A stretch of DNA of 64,000 nt, taken from positions 5,762-69,761 of the forward strand of contig JBEAVQ010000003.1 in assembly GCA_041160865.1 (NCBI GenBank). Direction: 5' to 3'. The notes below the pieces were generated by a model. The model saw only the letters and a program-made list of their open reading frames with translations, ran no database searches and was not told the DNA's origin. The DNA comes from Pseudomonadota bacterium (GTDB lineage Bacteria > Pseudomonadota > Alphaproteobacteria > Caulobacterales > Aquidulcibacteraceae). A program made the translations under genes and the position numbers. How positions within the stretch are numbered: position 1 is the first letter of the stretch; each line of letters opens with the position of its first letter. Positions 24,538 to 33,957 of the stretch are shown in pieces.

Positions 24538-25383
24538 TCAGTGCTCAACGTTGCGCCACACTTGGCGGTACGAGAACCACAGCAGGATGGTCAACACTAA
24601 TAGAAATGCCATCACGCCAAAACCTGTAATCTTGCGTTGGGTCTGATGGGGTTCAGAAGCCCAGCTCAAGAAGGCCACAACGTCACGGGACATTTGGTCA
24701 ACAGTTGGCTTGACGCCCTTATTGGCTTCAGTATCCGCATAGGTCACTTGTTCATCGACGATTGGAGGACCCATCGCAATCACGCCACCAGGCATATACG
24801 GATTATAGTACTTGCCCTCTGGAATGGACTTACCCTTGGGAGGCGTTTGATCATAGCCACTCAAAAGCGAGTAGACATAATCACCGCCGTTGTGACGTGC
24901 TTTAATCAGAGCCGACATATCGGGAGGCATCGACCCACCGTTAGCCGCTTTTGCTTGTGATGCGTTTTCAAACGGTGACACAAACTTGTCTGCTGGCAGG
25001 CCTGGACGTTCTTCCTCATTGCCGTCTGGATCCACCGCTTTCACGGTGTAGGTGGCAGCAATGGCCTTGATGACTGGGTTTTCGTTCGGGTTTGGATATT
25101 TGGGATCATAGAACGGGCCATGTTCATCACCGAGGTTACGGTAATGCAGTAAGTTCATCGAATGGCAGCCCGAGCAGACTTCCTTATAAACTTGGAAGCC
25201 GCGTTGTAGCTGGGCCCGGTCAAAGCGACCAAATGGGCCTTCCCAAGAGCCATTGACTTCCCGTGGATGCTTGACCTCGCCAGCAGCTTGCGAGCTGCTG
25301 GTGAAGGCCACGACAGACACAAGGCCTAAGACCCCGGCGATAAATCGGCGTGCGAAAGTTGGTTTCATTACAAAGTTCCTCAT
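24538..25383 (-). CDS. petC: Cytochrome c1
   Basis: [16 protein letters not shown] (CxxCH), [12 protein letters not shown]-terminal TM anchor. Confidence 0.96.
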
Positions 25384-26669
25384 TCCGCCGGTACAGTTGC
25401 AGCAGACACGCCTGCCGACTTCTTGTGGGATTGCAGAATCGAGTCAGCAATCGACGCAGGGGGGGTTTGGGGTTTCTCAATCACGCCCAATACTGGGAGA
25501 ACGACCAAGAAATAAGCGAAGTAGAAGATCGTACAGATCAGTGAGATCGCCGTCCAGGGTGGTTCAGCCGGCATGGCACCACATACAGCCAGCATCAGGA
25601 AGTTCAGCACAAAGGCGAACCACCACATGCGGGCGACTGGGCGATAGCGCATGGACTTGATCTTGGACGAGTCGAGCCAAGGCAAGGCGAACAAAATCAG
25701 GATCGCACCACCCATCGCAATCACGCCGCCGAACTTGGCATCAATGATCAAGACGTCGAAGGTAATCGCCCGAAGGATCGCATAGAAGGGCAATAGATAC
25801 CATTCAGGCACGATGTGCGCTGGCGTCACTTGGTTGTTGGCAGGGATGTAATTGTCTGGGTGACCCAAGGTGTTGGGGCCGAAGAAGACAAAGCCAGCAA
25901 AGATCAGCAAGAAGACGCAGATCGCAAACGCATCCTTGATTGTGTAGTAAGGATGGAATGGAAGGGTTTCTTTCTTCACATCTTGGACTTCAACACCGGT
26001 TGGGTTGTTGTTGCCAGGCACATGCAACGCCCAGATGTGCAAGACCACGACGCCTGCAATCACGAACGGCAGGAGATAGTGGAGCGAGAAGAAGCGGTTC
26101 AAGGTCGCATTGTCGACGGCAAAGCCGCCGAGCAACCAAGTTTTGATCGAGTCACCGATGAAAGGAACCGCACCCACGATGTTGGTGATCACGGTTGCGC
26201 CCCACAAGGACATCTGACCCCAAGGCAACACGTAACCCATGAAGGCGGTGATGATCATCAGCAAGAAGATGATGACACCCAAGCCCCACAAGATTTCGCG
26301 AGGTGCTTTGTACGATCCGTAATAAAGACCACGGAAGATGTGGATGTAAACGGCCAAGAAGAACATGCTGGCCCCGTTGGAGTGCATGAAGCGCACCAAC
26401 CAGCCATAGTTCACATCCCGCATGATGCGCTCAACGGAGTTAAAGGCCAGGTCGACATGTGGCACATAATGCATCGCCAAAATAATCCCGGTGATGATCT
26501 GGCTGGCCAAACAGACCGCCAAAATGCCGCCGAACGTGTACCAATAGTTCAAGTTCTTTGGGGTTGGAAAATCGACCAGCGTGTCATTCATAAACCGCAC
26601 GATCGGCAGCCGCGTATCCAACCACTTTTCGAGGTCGGACTTAGGCACATAGCTTGAAGGTCCACTCAT
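25380..26669 (-). CDS. petB: Cytochrome b
   Basis: [41 protein letters not shown]; start 26669 or 26684. Confidence 0.98.
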
Positions 26670-26676
26670 GTTCGTA

Positions 26677-27249
26677 TCATCCAATCTTTACGACTGTGCC
26701 GCCGGTATAGACGTAGGGCGGAATATAAAGGTTTTTCGGAGCTGGGCCCTTGCGAATGCGGCCAGCGGTATCGTAGTGCGAGCCATGGCAAGGACAGAAC
26801 CAGCCGCCGTACTCACCAATATAGCCGGGCTCAGCAATGCCGACAGGTATACAACCCAAGTGCGTACAGTTTGCTTCCATGATCAGATACTCTGGCTTAC
26901 CAGGCTGTTCATTGGACTGCATGGTGCGCTGATCGTCTGTTTGCGGATCCTTTAGATCTGCAGCGTCGTCTTTTTTACCTTGCGCGATTTCCTCAGCGGT
27001 CCGGTGACGAACGAATAGCGGCTTACCGCGCCACATGATCTTGGTTTGCGAGCCTTCAGCGACTTTGGACACATCAAACTCAATAGATGCCAAAGCGCGC
27101 GTATCGGCAGCTGGATTCATTTGATTGATGAGCGGCCAAGCCAGCATAGCGGCACCGCCCGCTGCTACGGCCCCCGTCGCGACATGGATCATGTCACGCC
27201 TTGTTGGTTCTCCGGCTTCGCCGGCTACTTCATGATTGGTGGCTGACAC
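26677..27249 (-). CDS. petA: Rieske iron-sulfur subunit
   Basis: Tat motif TRRD, CTHLGC and CPCHGS; GTG at 27249 with GGAG upstream. Confidence 0.97.
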
Positions 27250-27323: not shown

Positions 27324-27339
27324 TGCGACGGAACGCCGC
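27324..27339. promoter_or_regulatory. RegA/PrrA/SpdR-type box upstream of petA
   Basis: TGCGAC-GGAAC-GCCGC, 75-90 bp upstream of the petA start. Confidence 0.7.
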
Positions 27340-27362
27340 ATCTCGCGGCACCCCCTCCAAAG

Positions 27363-27842
27363 ATGAGATTGCATAACGTGCGCCTAGCTCTCTTTCAACC
27401 AGATATCGCGCCAAATCTTGGTGCGGCCATTCGTCTTACCGCATGCCTTGGCGTTAGGTTAGACGTAATCGAACCTTGTGGTTTTCCCTTATCAGACAAG
27501 GCCTTAAAGCGCGCATCCTTGGATTATGGCGACAAGTGTAACTGGCAGCGTCACAATAGCTTTGCTGCATTTGCAGCAGCCACAATGCTAGGAAATAGCA
27601 GGATTGTATTGATCGAGACGGAGGGAAGCACGCGTTTGACCGATTTTGTCTTTGAACCGAGCGATATTTTGATGCTGGGGCGGGAAACCGAGGGGACACC
27701 TCCTGACGTCATCGCTGCTTGCCACGCCTGTGTGCGAATTCCTATGGCGTCGGGACTGCGCTCTCTTAATGTGGTGACAGCGGGAGCTATCGCCTTAACC
27801 GAAGCCATGCGACAAACTGGCGGATGGGCGACGCTGGATTAG
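27363..27842 (+). CDS. trmL: tRNA (cytidine34-2'-O)-methyltransferase TrmL
   Basis: LFQPDIAPNLGAAIR, LKRASLDY, LGRETEG, RIPMASGLRSLNV. Confidence 0.92.
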   Translation: MRLHNVRLALFQPDIAPNLGAAIRLTACLGVRLDVIEPCGFPLSDKALKRASLDYGDKCNWQRHNSFAAFAAATMLGNSRIVLIETEGSTRLTDFVFEPSDILMLGRETEGTPPDVIAACHACVRIPMASGLRSLNVVTAGAIALTEAMRQTGGWATLD

Positions 27843-27901
27843 CGTTGTAGGGAGGAAACCGGGACCACTTTCCTGGCAAAAGAACGACAAACGAGGGCAG
27901 A

Positions 27902-28771
27902 ATGAGCGAGCAAGACGACCGTAAAGCACAGGCAAGAGCATGGTTTGAATCCTTGCGTGATCAGATCATGCAGGCTTTTGAAACCCTCGAAGACGAAGCC
28001 GACCCTGCCCTTTACCCTGGAAGTCCCGGCCGATTTGTCCGCACGCCTTGGAATCGCAAGGAAGAAGCAGGCGGCGGCGGCGTGATGGGAATCATGAAGG
28101 GCCGCCTGTTTGAGAAAGTCGGCGTACATGTCTCCACGGTGATGGGCACGTTTCCAGCCGATTATGCCAAAACCATTCCAGGTGCCTCTGAGGATCCCAG
28201 CTTTTGGGCATCAGGGGTCAGTCTGATCGCGCATATGACCAATCCACGCGTACCGGCAGTGCATATGAACACTCGCATGATAGCAACAACTGAAAGCTGG
28301 TTTGGCGGCGGCGCAGATTTGACGCCCCTGATGGCCTACCAGCGTACACAGGACTACCCCGACACGCTGACCTTCCATGCAGCGATGAAGCAGGCGTGCG
28401 ATGCGCACAACCCTGCCTATTATGCGAAGTTCAAAGACTGGTGCGACACCTATTTCCATTTGCCCCACCGCGACGAACCTCGAGGAATCGGCGGCATTTT
28501 TTATGACCACCACAATACGGGCGCTTGGGAGAAAGATTTTGCCTTCACCCAAGACGTCGGACGCGCTTTCTTGTCCGTCTATCCTGAAATTGTGCGCGAC
28601 CGCATGAACGAGACTTGGACTGAGGATGAACGGGAAGCTCAGCTAATCCAACGCGGTCGTTATGTGGAATATAATCTGCTCTATGACCGGGGTACGACAT
28701 TTGGCCTCAAGACTGGGGGCAATGTTGAGAGCATCCTCTCGTCCATGCCACCAATAGTAAAGTGGCCTTAA
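27902..28771 (+). CDS. hemF: Oxygen-dependent coproporphyrinogen-III oxidase
   Basis: [52 protein letters not shown]. Confidence 0.97.
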
Positions 28772-28818
28772 ATAGCTCACCAGAAGCTGATTAAACTGTA
28801 GCCACTTTTGCTCAAGAC

Positions 28819-28848
28819 TTGGCGCGCTTTAGCGTTTCAGGCTAAAGC
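28819..28848 (+). promoter_or_regulatory. Probable sigma70-type promoter giving a leaderless transcript
   Basis: TTGGCG-N16-GCTAAAGC ending 6 bp before ATG 28855; no SD; overlapped by a perfect 10-bp inverted repeat (28824-28850). Confidence 0.45.
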
Positions 28849-28854
28849 GCCGTT

Positions 28855-30114
28855 ATGATCCTCCGTCTTTTGCCCCTTCTGCTGGGCCTATCAACCCCTG
28901 TTTTCTTCACACCTGTACTAGCTCAAGCTGCAGCCCCTGCGGCTCTGGATCGCCTGTACGATAAGGTCCACTGCGAAACAGCTGGCCAAAGTTTTACTGG
29001 CGCAGATTTGCGTCAGCGCCTGATTGGCCAATCAGGCCTGACCATGACGGTTGAGCTTTTGATCGCCATTGAATCGCGTAGCTTGGGACAGCTTGCGGCA
29101 ACGAGCAAAGACGCCGCCTTGTCGGGCTTGCTCACATCAACCGAGACAGTGTTATCAACGCCGATGGTAGCAGAGGCTCGCTTCTTATTAACAAGCCAAG
29201 CCCAACCCGATGCGCGTGCTAGCGCGATTGCTTTTCTCAATGGCGATACAGATGGGATCAGCTTGGCGTGCACCGCCGCCTCCACACTACCGCCACCGCC
29301 AACCCCGGCCGTTTTCGTGCCGCAAAAGGAACCAGCCGCCAAGCAACGCGGATTGATCCTCGCTGACAGCAAAAATGACTTCATCAAACCTGCACGCGAA
29401 CGTGGCTTTGCTACGCTGGGCTTTGAAGAAGATAAGGCCGCCGACACCCGCCTTTTGAATGCCAGCCTAGCGCTGGCCATTGAGCCCATGTTATTTGCCA
29501 AGCCTTCGGAGACGACTGAATTACGCTGGACGCCCTTCGTCCAATATAACCGTCGTGCTGCGCGCTCTGGGCGTGAGGAGTTCAATGATCTTACGCTCGG
29601 CAATAGCATTATATTCCGCAATCCTACTCAGCCAGGTCGGGCGATTGGCTTTGGCTCGCTGGCATTTCAAACCGACGATGCTGCAAAAGCTGCCGTGTGG
29701 GTTGGTGACGCTTTGATCGACTTCCCGCGCGTTCGACCCTGCACCCGTCGCGACGCGCTGGGATGGGCCATGCGCTGCAATCTATCGATCGTCGTCGACT
29801 ATGCCGACGTGCAAGACCCAGGAGACAGCCAAAAACTGGCCGAACTCGACGCCTACCTGCGGGGTGGAATGAACTTGGGCTTGAGTGCTGAGCAGGCTTT
29901 TGGTTTTGGCGTTATCACCATCACGAGCAGCTATAATGGCCGCTATGACATCACAAGCCGCAAAGCCTCTGGCGGGATTTTCTCCGTCGGCGCAGGCCTG
30001 CGACCCTCGGCAGGGTCCAATATCTCGCTAGAGACGCGTTACACGCGCGGCACGACTATCAACACCTTGCTAGATGTCGACAAAATCACGTTGCGACTGG
30101 GCTATCGGCTCTAA
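28855..30114 (+). CDS. Hypothetical secreted protein, probable outer-membrane beta-barrel with N-terminal helical domain
   Basis: Signal peptide ...PVLAQA; Pro-rich linker; alternating amphipathic strands; C-terminal ITLRLGYRL. Confidence 0.55.
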   Translation: MILRLLPLLLGLSTPVFFTPVLAQAAAPAALDRLYDKVHCETAGQSFTGADLRQRLIGQSGLTMTVELLIAIESRSLGQLAATSKDAALSGLLTSTETVLSTPMVAEARFLLTSQAQPDARASAIAFLNGDTDGISLACTAASTLPPPPTPAVFVPQKEPAAKQRGLILADSKNDFIKPARERGFATLGFEEDKAADTRLLNASLALAIEPMLFAKPSETTELRWTPFVQYNRRAARSGREEFNDLTLGNSIIFRNPTQPGRAIGFGSLAFQTDDAAKAAVWVGDALIDFPRVRPCTRRDALGWAMRCNLSIVVDYADVQDPGDSQKLAELDAYLRGGMNLGLSAEQAFGFGVITITSSYNGRYDITSRKASGGIFSVGAGLRPSAGSNISLETRYTRGTTINTLLDVDKITLRLGYRL

Positions 30115-30125
30115 AGCGTAAGAGT

Positions 30126-31490
30126 CTAATAGGCGCAGGTATCATAGATCTTGTGGATATTGCCACCCCATTCCCCGTGATAGCGCTCGAGCAAACGTTG
30201 CGCTGGAGTCATGCCGCTAGCAGCAATTTCGTCAAGCTCACTTAAGAAGCCTGTCTCATCATCACCTGAAGCATTGAGCTTCGCGCGTGCGCGCAAGCCC
30301 TGGCGGGCAATCGTCAACACATCCTTGGCGACATCTTGGGCACTGCGACCCCGAATGGGTGCCTTGAGGCCCAAAAAGGGCACCGTGCGACGCAGGCTCT
30401 CGCGGTCTTCCGCTGTCCAATCCTTGACGAGTTCCAAGGCTGCCTCGGTGGCCGCATCATCATACAGCAGACCAACAAAGAGGGCGGGCAAAGCACACAG
30501 CCGCGACCAAGGGCCCGCATCTGCGCCGCGCATTTCCAAGAAAGTCTTCAGACGGACTTCTGGGAAGCAGGTCGTCAAATGGTCTTCCCAATTCTTCATC
30601 GTCGGCTTTTCGCCGGGCAATTCGGGTAAGCGGCCTGCCATGAAGTCCCGGAATGAACGCCCTGCGAGATTGAGATACTCGCCATTGCGCTTGACAAAAT
30701 ACATCGGCACGTCGAGCGCCCATTCAGCATAGCGGGCAAAACTCATACCCGGCTCAAACACAAACGGCAGCATGCCCGTGCGATCTGGGTCGGTATCGCT
30801 CCACACATGGGCGCGATAGCTCAAGAAGCCGTTGGTGCGACCTTCTGCAAAGGGGGAATTGGCGAATAAGGCTGTGGCGATGGGTTGCAGCGCCAGCGAC
30901 GCACGGAACTTCTTCACCATGTCGGCTTCTGAACCAAAGTCCAAATTGGTTTGTACCGTGCAAGAGCGGAACATCATTTGTCGACCCAGTCGGCCGACCT
31001 TGGGCATATAGTCCCGCATAATTTTATAACGGCCCTTTGGCATCAGCGGAATTTCTTCCAAGCTGTGCAAGGGGTTGAAGCCCAGACCCAAAAAGCCAAT
31101 GCCGAGCTTGTCGGTGACAGTACGGACGTCACTGAGATGGGCACCTACTTCCGTGCAGGTCTGGTGCAAATGCTCTAACGGAGCGCCAGACAATTCAAAC
31201 TGACCGCCGGGCTCCAGCGTGATCGACGCCATGCCCTGCTTTAGGCCAATGATATCATCGCTTTCATAAATGCCATCCCAGCCCGAAAGGGTCTTCATCC
31301 CATCCAAAAGAGCGCGCACACCCGTGTCGCCCGCATAAGGGACAGGCGCGTGGGTGACTTTGTAGAAGCCGAACTTCTCATGCTCGGTCCCGATTTTCCA
31401 ATCAGATTTAGGCTTTGGCCCCGCATCAAAATAGGGCAACAAATCCTCAAATGTCTCGAGGGGGCGGGAAAGGTCTTCTGAATCAGCCAT
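30126..31490 (-). CDS. gshA: Glutamate--cysteine ligase (alphaproteobacterial/plant type)
   Basis: IGTEHEKF, ITLEPGGQFELSG, MPKGRYKIM, SCTVQTNLDF, EVRLKTFLEMRGAD; start set at MADSE. Confidence 0.95.
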   Translation of the reverse strand: MADSEDLSRPLETFEDLLPYFDAGPKPKSDWKIGTEHEKFGFYKVTHAPVPYAGDTGVRALLDGMKTLSGWDGIYESDDIIGLKQGMASITLEPGGQFELSGAPLEHLHQTCTEVGAHLSDVRTVTDKLGIGFLGLGFNPLHSLEEIPLMPKGRYKIMRDYMPKVGRLGRQMMFRSCTVQTNLDFGSEADMVKKFRASLALQPIATALFANSPFAEGRTNGFLSYRAHVWSDTDPDRTGMLPFVFEPGMSFARYAEWALDVPMYFVKRNGEYLNLAGRSFRDFMAGRLPELPGEKPTMKNWEDHLTTCFPEVRLKTFLEMRGADAGPWSRLCALPALFVGLLYDDAATEAALELVKDWTAEDRESLRRTVPFLGLKAPIRGRSAQDVAKDVLTIARQGLRARAKLNASGDDETGFLSELDEIAASGMTPAQRLLERYHGEWGGNIHKIYDTCAY

Positions 31491-31582
31491 GCACAAAGTC
31501 TCATACGACGTGAAGTTCACGCTGGTGTGAGTTAGGGCGCGTTTATGACAGGCGCAAGAAGGCCCCTTGGATTTTGCCGTTT

Positions 31583-32224
31583 TTATACTGTCAGGGCATG
31601 CGCAAACTGATGGTTGACGTCGCGGTGCTTGGCTTCATCGGCCCGCACCGCCAAGACCACATCACGCAGTCGCGCATCGGGGGCAAGCTTCCAATAGTCA
31701 ATCGCAATGGCTGGCGCGGCCACATTCTCCAGCCGACCCGCATCGATCTCAGCCAAGTAAGAGGTATAGCTGATCACCGCTTCTTCCTCAAAATAACCAA
31801 CCATACGATGGGCCGTACGGGGGAAGAAAAGATAGAGCACAAAGAAGGCATTGAAGAACACACCTTGCGCCAACAAGATCAATAAGCGCTCTAGCCAGTT
31901 TGGCTGGGCGATGGTCACAAATGTCATCAGGTGCATGCGCTCGTTTTGAGATTCATCCAGCAGCGTCTGGATCCAGCCGTGATCATCTTCCATGCGTCGG
32001 ATGCTGCGCATATGAACCAACATTCCGGCGACCATGCCCGGTACAGCCGCTACGGTTTCCAGCACCACAGCGCGGTGGCCATAGCGCTTGGCAAAAAAGC
32101 GATCAGCAAAGAAGCGTAGGGCACGCGTCAGGCCCAAAGCGACCCGGTCCGAGAGGTCTTGGGGGGCTTGATGAAACTCCAAAGGGTTTGCCGTTTCAAA
32201 AGAATAACCCGACGCCGTACTCAT
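31583..32224 (-). CDS. aox: Alternative oxidase (ubiquinol oxidase, di-iron)
   Basis: [40 protein letters not shown]. Confidence 0.95.
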
Positions 32225-32309
32225 GACTGTCTCCTGCTTTTGGGCACCTAGCGCGCGTGATTGCCCTCAGGTCCTAGCGTCAGATGGTGATTAGGCGCGC
32301 CTTCGAAAA

Positions 32310-32325
32310 TGCGACGCAATGTCGC
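32310..32325. promoter_or_regulatory. RegA/PrrA/SpdR-type box upstream of aox
   Basis: TGCGAC-GCAAT-GTCGC, perfect GCGAC/GTCGC palindrome, 86-101 bp upstream of the aox start. Confidence 0.75.
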
Positions 32326-32339
32326 TCCCTCTTTCGCCC

Positions 32340-33068
32340 TCAAATCCAATCGCCCCAAGCGCTTTGGATCAAGGTTAGCCCCGCAAAAATTGCCGTATCG
32401 GCTCGCAAAATACGTGGGCCCAGATTGACGGGGCGAACAAGTGGGCTCGCCCGCAATTTCTTTCGCTCTGCTGGCGTAAAGCCGCCTTCAGGGCCGGTCA
32501 AAAGCGCCACGCAGGCAGGCTTATCGGCTAAAGCTTCTGCGACCGATATGGCATCGCCTGCTTCATCAGCAAACAGGATCAGTCGCTGTTCTGCCTTGGG
32601 ATCAAACAAGCTCATGAGGCTTACCGCATCGAAAACCTCGGGAACAAACAAGGTGCCGCACTGCTCAGACGCCTCTGCCGCGCGACTTCGGAGGCGCTCA
32701 AGATTGAGCTTCCGAACGATGGTGCGCTCGGTCAATACAGGCCTGATGCGCGCCACGCCAAGCTCTGTGGCCTTTTCGACAATCGTATCGGTGCGGTCGC
32801 CCTTTACCGGGGCAAACAAGAGATCGAGATAACAAACGGAGGTTTGGGTACGGGTCTGTTCAGCACAGTCGGCTTCCGCGCCTTTTTTGCTAATCTGGGT
32901 CAAATGGGCCAGCCATTCTCCATCGCGGCCATTGAACAACAAAACCGCCGCGCCCACAGGCAAACGCAACACATTGGCTAGGTAATGTGCCTGCCCTGCG
33001 TCGAGCGGTACGGACCGATCTTGACCCAAATCAGAGGCGACATACAGGCGTTGGCTGGGCTTCATCAT
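32340..33068 (-). CDS. rsmE: 16S rRNA m3U1498 methyltransferase RsmE
   Basis: HYLANVLRL, IVEKATELGV, EASEQCG, LTGPEGGF, LGPRILRADTA. Confidence 0.95.
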   Translation of the reverse strand: MMKPSQRLYVASDLGQDRSVPLDAGQAHYLANVLRLPVGAAVLLFNGRDGEWLAHLTQISKKGAEADCAEQTRTQTSVCYLDLLFAPVKGDRTDTIVEKATELGVARIRPVLTERTIVRKLNLERLRSRAAEASEQCGTLFVPEVFDAVSLMSLFDPKAEQRLILFADEAGDAISVAEALADKPACVALLTGPEGGFTPAERKKLRASPLVRPVNLGPRILRADTAIFAGLTLIQSAWGDWI

Positions 33069-33144: not shown

Positions 33145-33957
33145 ATGGCCAACGACAAGAAGTCCACAAAAGCTGCAAGCGATGCTGCGAAATCCAAGAT
33201 GACCGACGCCGCGTTTCTGGAACAGTTAGAGCCTCTCCAAGTCGCGCTGGTCACCACCCAGCAATGGCTGATGGAAACCGGGGCAAAAGTGCTGATCATC
33301 TTTGAAGGCCGCGATGCGGCAGGCAAGGACGGCACAATCAAGCGCATGATTGAGCATATGGGTGCGCGCTCAACCCGCGTCGTCGCGCTGCCCAAGCCGT
33401 CTGATCGTGAAAAAACTCAATGGCATTTCCAACGCTACGCCGCCCATCTGCCAGCGGCGGGTGAAGTCGTGATATTTAACCGCTCTTGGTATAATCGCGG
33501 CGGCGTAGAGCCTGTCATGGGCTTTTGCACGCCTGAAGAGCATGCCGATTTCTTGCGCGATGTAGTGCCGTTTGAAACCATGTTGAATGAGTCAGGCACC
33601 CATATCATCAAGCTTTGGCTAGATATCAGTCGCGAAGAACAGGCCCGACGTCTGGAAGAGCGGCGCACAGATCCACTCGCCCGCCTGAAGATCAGCCCGC
33701 TGGATGCTGTCGCGCAAGAAAAATGGGACGACTACACCGCCGCGCGCGACGAAATGCTCAAAGCCACCCACACCGCTCGCACCCCTTGGTATTGCATCCG
33801 CGCAGACTCTAAAAAGCACGCCCGCCTCGCCATCATTCGCCACGTCTTGCACCAACTCGCCTGCCCCAAATTGGAGAGACAAGTTCCTGAGGCCTCGAGT
33901 GAGCTTTTGTTCAAGTTCACAGCAAAGGCCATTAAGGATGGGCGTCTGGCGGATTGA
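33145..33957 (+). CDS. ppk2: Polyphosphate kinase 2
   Basis: FEGRDAAGKDG (Walker A), FNRSWYNR, KLWLDISREEQ. Confidence 0.93.
   Translation: MANDKKSTKAASDAAKSKMTDAAFLEQLEPLQVALVTTQQWLMETGAKVLIIFEGRDAAGKDGTIKRMIEHMGARSTRVVALPKPSDREKTQWHFQRYAAHLPAAGEVVIFNRSWYNRGGVEPVMGFCTPEEHADFLRDVVPFETMLNESGTHIIKLWLDISREEQARRLEERRTDPLARLKISPLDAVAQEKWDDYTAARDEMLKATHTARTPWYCIRADSKKHARLAIIRHVLHQLACPKLERQVPEASSELLFKFTAKAIKDGRLAD

Follow-up and report, generated by a model that had tools for sequence, protein, structure and literature searches.

The question raised by this locus is whether two routes that oxidise ubiquinol, the cytochrome bc1 complex (petABC) and the alternative oxidase (AOX, gene aox), are placed under one redox regulator. 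Both lie in the 64,000-nucleotide (nt) stretch analysed here (the window, G000:C60:5762-69761), part of a 3.16-Mb draft genome of 55% G+C whose named relatives place its host in the freshwater genus Aquidulcibacter, order Caulobacterales. A first-pass annotation had pointed to a shared RegA/PrrA/SpdR-type box upstream of petA and of aox, and every detail that it gave of the box positions, their distances to the genes, their identity and their intergenic placement was borne out by the sequence. The petA box lies in the 113-nt divergent gap between the petA start and the trmL ATG (27363), the aox box lies 14 nt past the rsmE stop (32340) in the 115-nt rsmE/aox gap, and the two 16-nt sequences are identical at 13 of 16 positions. 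We conclude that both boxes are probably operators of a regulator of the RegA/PrrA/ActR family, which would place bc1 and AOX under joint control by a sensor of the quinol level; that RegA binds here, which way it acts and how the promoters are arranged we infer from sequence. The RegA orthologue is named SpdR in Caulobacterales.

In the orientation of their genes, both boxes matched the RegR-box consensus GNGRCRTTNNGNCGC (quoted in PMC5506826) at all specified positions and fitted TGCGAC-N5-GYCGC, with the imperfect inverted repeat GCGRC-N5-GYCGC present in each. The SpdR motif is CTGCGAC-N5-GTCGCAG (PMC4830024), and only a single spacer base separated the aox box from the Caulobacter crescentus cspD site TGCGACGAAATGTCGC, an operator experimentally bound by SpdR (PMC4830024, PMC6530869). 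Bare pattern counts did not discriminate, as GNGRCRTTNNGNCGC occurred 18 times in the genome, mostly inside genes, compared with ~16 times in third-order Markov simulations, and GCGAC-N5-GYCGC was found at 31 loci, mostly coding. We therefore used a weight matrix together with conservation. The matrix, derived from 52 sites of genes responding to the phosphomimetic SpdR(D64E) in C. crescentus (PMC6530869 S2 table; training-site median 14.5 bits), was applied to the entire genome on both strands. The petA box scored 18.0 bits and ranked 2 genome-wide, and the aox box scored 15.8 bits and ranked 8; at these scores 7e-5 and 3e-4 matches, respectively, are expected per 115-nt gap. Strong matrix matches inside genes (for example C180:23212 and C116:15008) were judged to be chance. 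Matches at window 27808 (trmL end, before hemF) and 28693 (hemF end) were also rejected, their second half-sites drifting like wobble positions.

Both boxes were kept in the host genome and 14 other genomes of the genus while their flanks drifted. Upstream of aox, the box was present in all of them at about −100 and formed the most conserved block of the gap alignment. It was unchanged in the host genome and 12 others, and the two most distant genus members (L021 and L022) carried the variants GCGACACTGCGCCGC and GCGTCATTGGGTCGC, which altered only the fourth base of one half-site, a position that is N in the RegA consensus. Of the 14 other genomes, 13 had an identical petA box and one carried the variant TGAGGCGTTTTGTCGCA, in which the GTCGCA half-site is retained. 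Beyond the genus comparison, TGCGRC-N5-GYCGCA boxes scoring 12 bits or more were detected 70–160 nt before petA at 10 of 15 further family loci and, by the same criterion, in 15 of 20 genomes of other Caulobacterales families, indicating that the petA site is old. This order-wide occurrence suggests that respiratory control may be the ancestral core of the SpdR regulon. Taken together, the consensus, the independent matrix and the phylogenetic footprinting of both upstream regions supported the assignment of the boxes to the RegA/PrrA/SpdR type.

The aox box also reached beyond the genus. Among 80 public aox loci, 66 of them non-genus, we counted boxes that reached 12 bits in the 300 nt preceding the gene, with 128 stretches of the same loci as controls. 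Boxes were present at 12 of the 66 non-genus loci versus one of the 128 control stretches (Fisher p = 1e-5), and the 12 belonged to alphaproteobacterial lineages labelled Hyphomonas, Caulobacterales, Hyphomonadaceae, Rhodospirillales and Rhodosalinus. Matrix scores were low at the gammaproteobacterial aox loci (Rheinheimera, Arsukibacterium, Thioalkalivibrio). The gene order rsmE-aox-gshA was confined to the genus, and the boxed non-genus aox loci had other neighbours, so the box travels with aox rather than with rsmE. This is a hint that a link between RegA and aox may be widespread in alphaproteobacteria.

A RegB/RegA pair, without which the first-pass annotation's proposal would fail, is encoded on another contig of the genome, and both proteins passed their NCBIfam equivalog cut-offs. 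RegB carries the quinone-site motif GGXXNPF as GGIANPF (residues 118–124), the redox cysteine Cys277 in QRCRE, and R43/Q50 in the first membrane helix; the same features bind ubiquinone and sense redox in RegB of Rhodobacter capsulatus (PMC3000548). Alignment of the RegA effector domain to the PrrA structure 1UMQ showed an identical recognition helix, NVSETARRLNMHRRTLQRILAKR, and the helix-turn-helix equals that of R. sphaeroides PrrA apart from one Ala/Ser exchange. Since the RegB motifs and the RegA helix match, the Caulobacter, Rhodobacter and Bradyrhizobium matrices and consensus should transfer to this genus. A RegA scan of named genome records returned no genus member among the matches listed. 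About 10 kb downstream of regBA, the same contig carries repA-like and parA-like genes (G000:C152:13507-15886), and regBA may belong to a mobile element or secondary replicon or be adjacent to one.

Table 1. Boxes, genes and candidate regulator sites. Coordinates without a contig are window positions; C numbers are contigs of the same draft genome (G000). Genes were assigned from open reading frames and protein-family searches (Pfam, NCBIfam/TIGR).
Feature	Coordinates	Strand	Position or evidence
petA box, RegA/SpdR-type, TGCGACGGAACGCCGCA (petA orientation TGCGGCGTTCCGTCGCA)	27324..27340	.	petA/trmL divergent gap
petA box, 16-mer TGCGACGGAACGCCGC	27324-27339		75-90 nt upstream of petA GTG at 27249
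aox box, RegA/SpdR-type, TGCGACGCAATGTCGCT (aox orientation AGCGACATTGCGTCGCA)	32310..32326	.	between rsmE stop and aox start
aox box, 16-mer TGCGACGCAATGTCGC	32310-32325		86-101 nt upstream of aox ATG at 32224
petA-petB-petC, cytochrome bc1 complex	24538..27249	-	open reading frames
petC	24538-25383	-	
petB	25380-26684	-	
petA (Rieske)	26677-27249	-	TIGR01416, 219.9 bits; GTG start
trmL	27363-27842	+	NCBIfam match; divergent from petA
hemF, oxygen-dependent coproporphyrinogen oxidase	27902-28771	+	NCBIfam match
unassigned 419-aa open reading frame	28855-30114	+	
gshA, glutamate-cysteine ligase	30126-31520	-	TIGR01436, 661 bits
aox, alternative oxidase	31583-32224	-	Pfam PF01786, 290.8 bits
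rsmE, 16S rRNA m3U1498 methyltransferase	32340-33068	-	NF008696, 301.9 bits; upstream neighbour of aox
ppk2	33145-33957	+	
regB	C152:1528-2895		ActS_PrrB equivalog NF033792, 411.8 bits
regA	C152:2938-3519		ActR_PrrA equivalog NF033791, 309 bits (cut-off 250)
candidate regB site	C152:1483-1499		15.4 bits, 28 nt upstream of regB; retained by ten genomes of the genus
candidate senC/SCO1 site	C70:60101-60117		15 nt before senC; 13.9 bits
candidate coxB site	C131:19281-19323		14.6 bits, 63 nt upstream of coxB; a half-site lies 26 nt farther upstream; genus-conserved
candidate beta-carbonic anhydrase site	C188:26630-26646		at gene start; matrix match

The four iron-ligand (Glu/His) motifs LETVA, NERMHL, FEEEA and RADEAKH are readable in the AOX translation. 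The gshA gene follows aox on the same strand after 62 nt, and because the terminator scan found no terminator-like site in this gap, the two genes are possibly co-transcribed. Several features of aox loci in related genomes were recorded alongside. One Caulobacterales metagenome-assembled genome (L085) has the order aox-rsmE-gshA, which suggests insertion of aox into an older rsmE-gshA pair. In one genus member (G011; loci L019/L078), the aox promoter contains a ~100-nt insertion with the perfect hairpin CACCATTTTTCGATTCCGAAAAATGGTG, which looks like a small mobile insert, parts the box and the TTGG block from a GGCAAT block, and shifts the box to −202. Further genus-conserved blocks, ATCACCATCT, T.GGACCT...GGCA and GCGCG, lie between the box and aox on the minus strand (window 32240-32295) and may be promoter elements or the site of a second regulator. 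An incomplete metagenome-assembled genome of the genus holds aox only as two short diverged pieces of 52–64% identity (G007:C390:2644-3026), each with one in-frame stop, possibly a pseudogene.

The matrix pointed to other candidate members of the regulon. Seven of the top 20 matches were non-coding or at a gene start, compared with 12% expected (p = 0.007), and the candidate sites before regB, senC/SCO1, coxB and a beta-carbonic anhydrase gene are given in Table 1; a carbonic anhydrase is also among the genes listed for C. crescentus SpdR (PMC6530869). The palindromic sequence CGCGACAGCGTGTCGCG (G000:C54:28804-28820; 16.6 bits, rank 6) is non-coding and lies 218 nt before a short-chain dehydrogenase gene.

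Several observations weigh against, or qualify, joint control by RegA. The matches that the first-pass annotation had predicted at cyd and cco genes were not obtained: no SpdR-matrix site was found upstream of cydA, and upstream of ccoN there was only a weak half-site of 9.2 bits. The coxB site listed above overlaps a sigma-70-like −35 GTGACA followed by the −10 GCTATTTC and may simply be the promoter itself. A sigma-70 consensus scan found no promoter in either gap. The petA box, whose distance to the trmL start is 21–28 nt in most genera with a box and to petA 71–100 nt, may serve trmL-hemF as well as, or in place of, petABC; haem synthesis genes are RegA targets in Rhodobacter. In C. crescentus, no bc1, cytochrome or oxidase gene was changed at least 2-fold by SpdR(D64E) (PMC6530869), implying that a box need not mean strong control. 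The regulation of aox that has been described is by NsrR and nitric oxide (NO) in Vibrio fischeri and in response to NO in Sphingopyxis granuli TFA (PMC6472365, PMC7713065), and NsrR/NO was the only described regulation of a bacterial aox found in the literature searched. Finally, in the copy searched of one complete genome of the genus (G009; UKL13-1 by its aox locus), where both boxes are unchanged, we found neither regB, regA nor three neighbouring genes, and no part of the 8-kb region that carries regBA in its closest relative.

The last of these points would be explained if another factor recognising a similar inverted repeat bound the boxes, or if RegA were dispensable for their function. 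We consider this improbable. The closest relative of that genome (G001) has regBA, and the gap could stem from a deletion, from a replicon that is missing, or from a stretch not included in the copy searched; a loss would be very recent, with the boxes not yet decayed. The matrix in which both boxes rank high was, moreover, derived solely from SpdR-dependent genes. We know of no other regulator with this motif. An RNA element is less probable still: the aox box would then form the hairpin that terminates rsmE, or some other RNA structure, and its likeness to the petA box would be chance. The minus-strand RNA around the aox box, close behind the rsmE stop, does fold into a GCGAC/GUCGC stem with additional G-U pairs (−19.2 kcal/mol, z = −2.1). 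However, the terminator scan was negative in both gaps, no U-run follows the aox-box stem, and there was no Rfam match. The variants GCGACACTGCGCCGC and GCGTCATTGGGTCGC break the stem without a compensatory change, precisely where the RegA consensus has N, the loop does not vary among the 13 genomes with an unchanged box (the host and 12 others), and a similar box precedes aox where rsmE is not its neighbour.

The boxes could also be RegA/SpdR operators with opposite effects, one branch being activated and the other repressed, which would partition quinol between bc1 and AOX. The inferred promoter geometry differs between the two gaps in a way that could accommodate this. In the petA gap, a conserved CTAYTT is a putative −10 element, and the box centre would then lie at about −42 from the implied start, overlapping a putative −35. 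We take CTAYTT to resemble the Caulobacter −10 element GCTANAWC. The aox box lies ~37 nt upstream of a conserved weak −35-like TTGGAC, and would thus stand well upstream of the −35, with a weak and variable −10. A sigma-54 or extracytoplasmic-function sigma reading of the TTGGACC...GGCA block was rejected, by reasoning from its spacing and variable −10 positions. Class II activators and repressors alike, however, typically have sites centred near −42, and the direction of control is therefore not readable from the sequence. RegA reportedly activates bc1 in R. capsulatus (Swem et al. 2001), which counts against opposite control. RegA also binds the bc1 promoter region in that species (PMC5359404). 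In favour of opposite control, RegA-family regulators are established to activate some oxidases and repress others (PMC11742914). We regard opposite control as unlikely, and joint induction of both quinol routes appears at least as likely as a reciprocal switch.

Joint control by a quinol sensor is the most economical reading by analogy with the RegB/RegA and RoxS/RoxR precedents. RegB is inhibited by oxidised ubiquinone, and once the pool is reduced it can phosphorylate RegA (PMC3000548). In Aquidulcibacter, reduction of the quinone pool would cause RegB to phosphorylate RegA, and phosphorylated RegA would bind the inverted repeat TGCGRC-N5-GYCGCA before petABC, perhaps acting also on the divergent trmL-hemF, and the box before aox or a possible aox-gshA unit. 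The most likely outcome would be a joint rise of the two quinol-oxidising routes, in which AOX serves as an overflow valve that does not pump, and such joint induction would exert direct negative feedback on the quinol level; glutathione synthesis may share the aox transcript via aox-gshA. The quinol-branch switch put forward in the first-pass annotation is supported in part, for its RegA-type boxes and its regBA pair; co-induction fits the known behaviour of the family better than the word switch. A broader proposal, that RegB/RegA together with AOX constitute a direct quinone-pool valve, conserved widely across alphaproteobacteria, in which AOX (perhaps with gshA) is switched on and bc1 is set in the opposite sense or graded, seems to us rather doubtful; if true, it would be the bacterial counterpart, in the lineage of the mitochondrial ancestor, of the over-reduction-driven induction of mitochondrial AOX.

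The type of site, the regulator and the bc1 target are already known, and the feedback model involves no new kind of mechanism; aox is a well-supported new candidate member of this type of regulon. Consistent with the statement in the first-pass annotation, the literature searched contained no report of an AOX controlled by RegA, SpdR, ActR or RoxR. Bacterial AOX is widespread in aquatic alphaproteobacteria, and only control by NO/NsrR, in a few species, is known for it. An operator of the RegA/SpdR type conserved at aox would tie AOX to the sole sensor that directly reads the quinone pool, and would give a simple, testable reason for keeping an oxidase that does not conserve energy, namely that it relieves over-reduction of quinol. 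The Caulobacterales SpdR regulon would then also reach beyond stationary-phase and adhesion genes, back to the respiratory chain.

Among known systems, SpdS/SpdR of C. crescentus, with operators at cspD and CC0517, shares the order, an orthologous regulator and the motif with Aquidulcibacter. Its regulon differs, covering stationary phase, chemotaxis, signalling and adhesion, with no aox (PMC4830024, PMC6530869). RegB/RegA of R. capsulatus and PrrB/PrrA of R. sphaeroides have the same recognition helix, GGXXNPF motif and redox cysteine, and in R. capsulatus RegA in its phosphorylated form occupies the promoters of bc1, cbb3, quinol oxidase and cytochromes c2 and cy (PMC5359404); another likeness is the site found before regB in Aquidulcibacter. 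Unlike Rhodobacter, the Aquidulcibacter context has no photosystem genes; its cydA lacks a box, and the Rhodobacter RegA/PrrA regulons as described do not include AOX. RegS/RegR of Bradyrhizobium japonicum, whose box is matched by both Aquidulcibacter boxes, has different targets, fixR-nifA and denitrification genes. NsrR control of aox differs from the RegA/SpdR type in both the regulator, a member of the Rrf2 family, and the signal, which is NO. A functional precedent is RoxS/RoxR, a member of the RegBA family in Pseudomonas aeruginosa and Burkholderia cenocepacia, which activates a cyanide-insensitive quinol oxidase (CIO) bypassing bc1 (PMC11742914). CIO is a bd-type haem oxidase of beta- and gammaproteobacteria whereas AOX is a di-iron carboxylate protein, but the logic would be the same as that proposed here for AOX, a quinol oxidase turned on when the chain is blocked.

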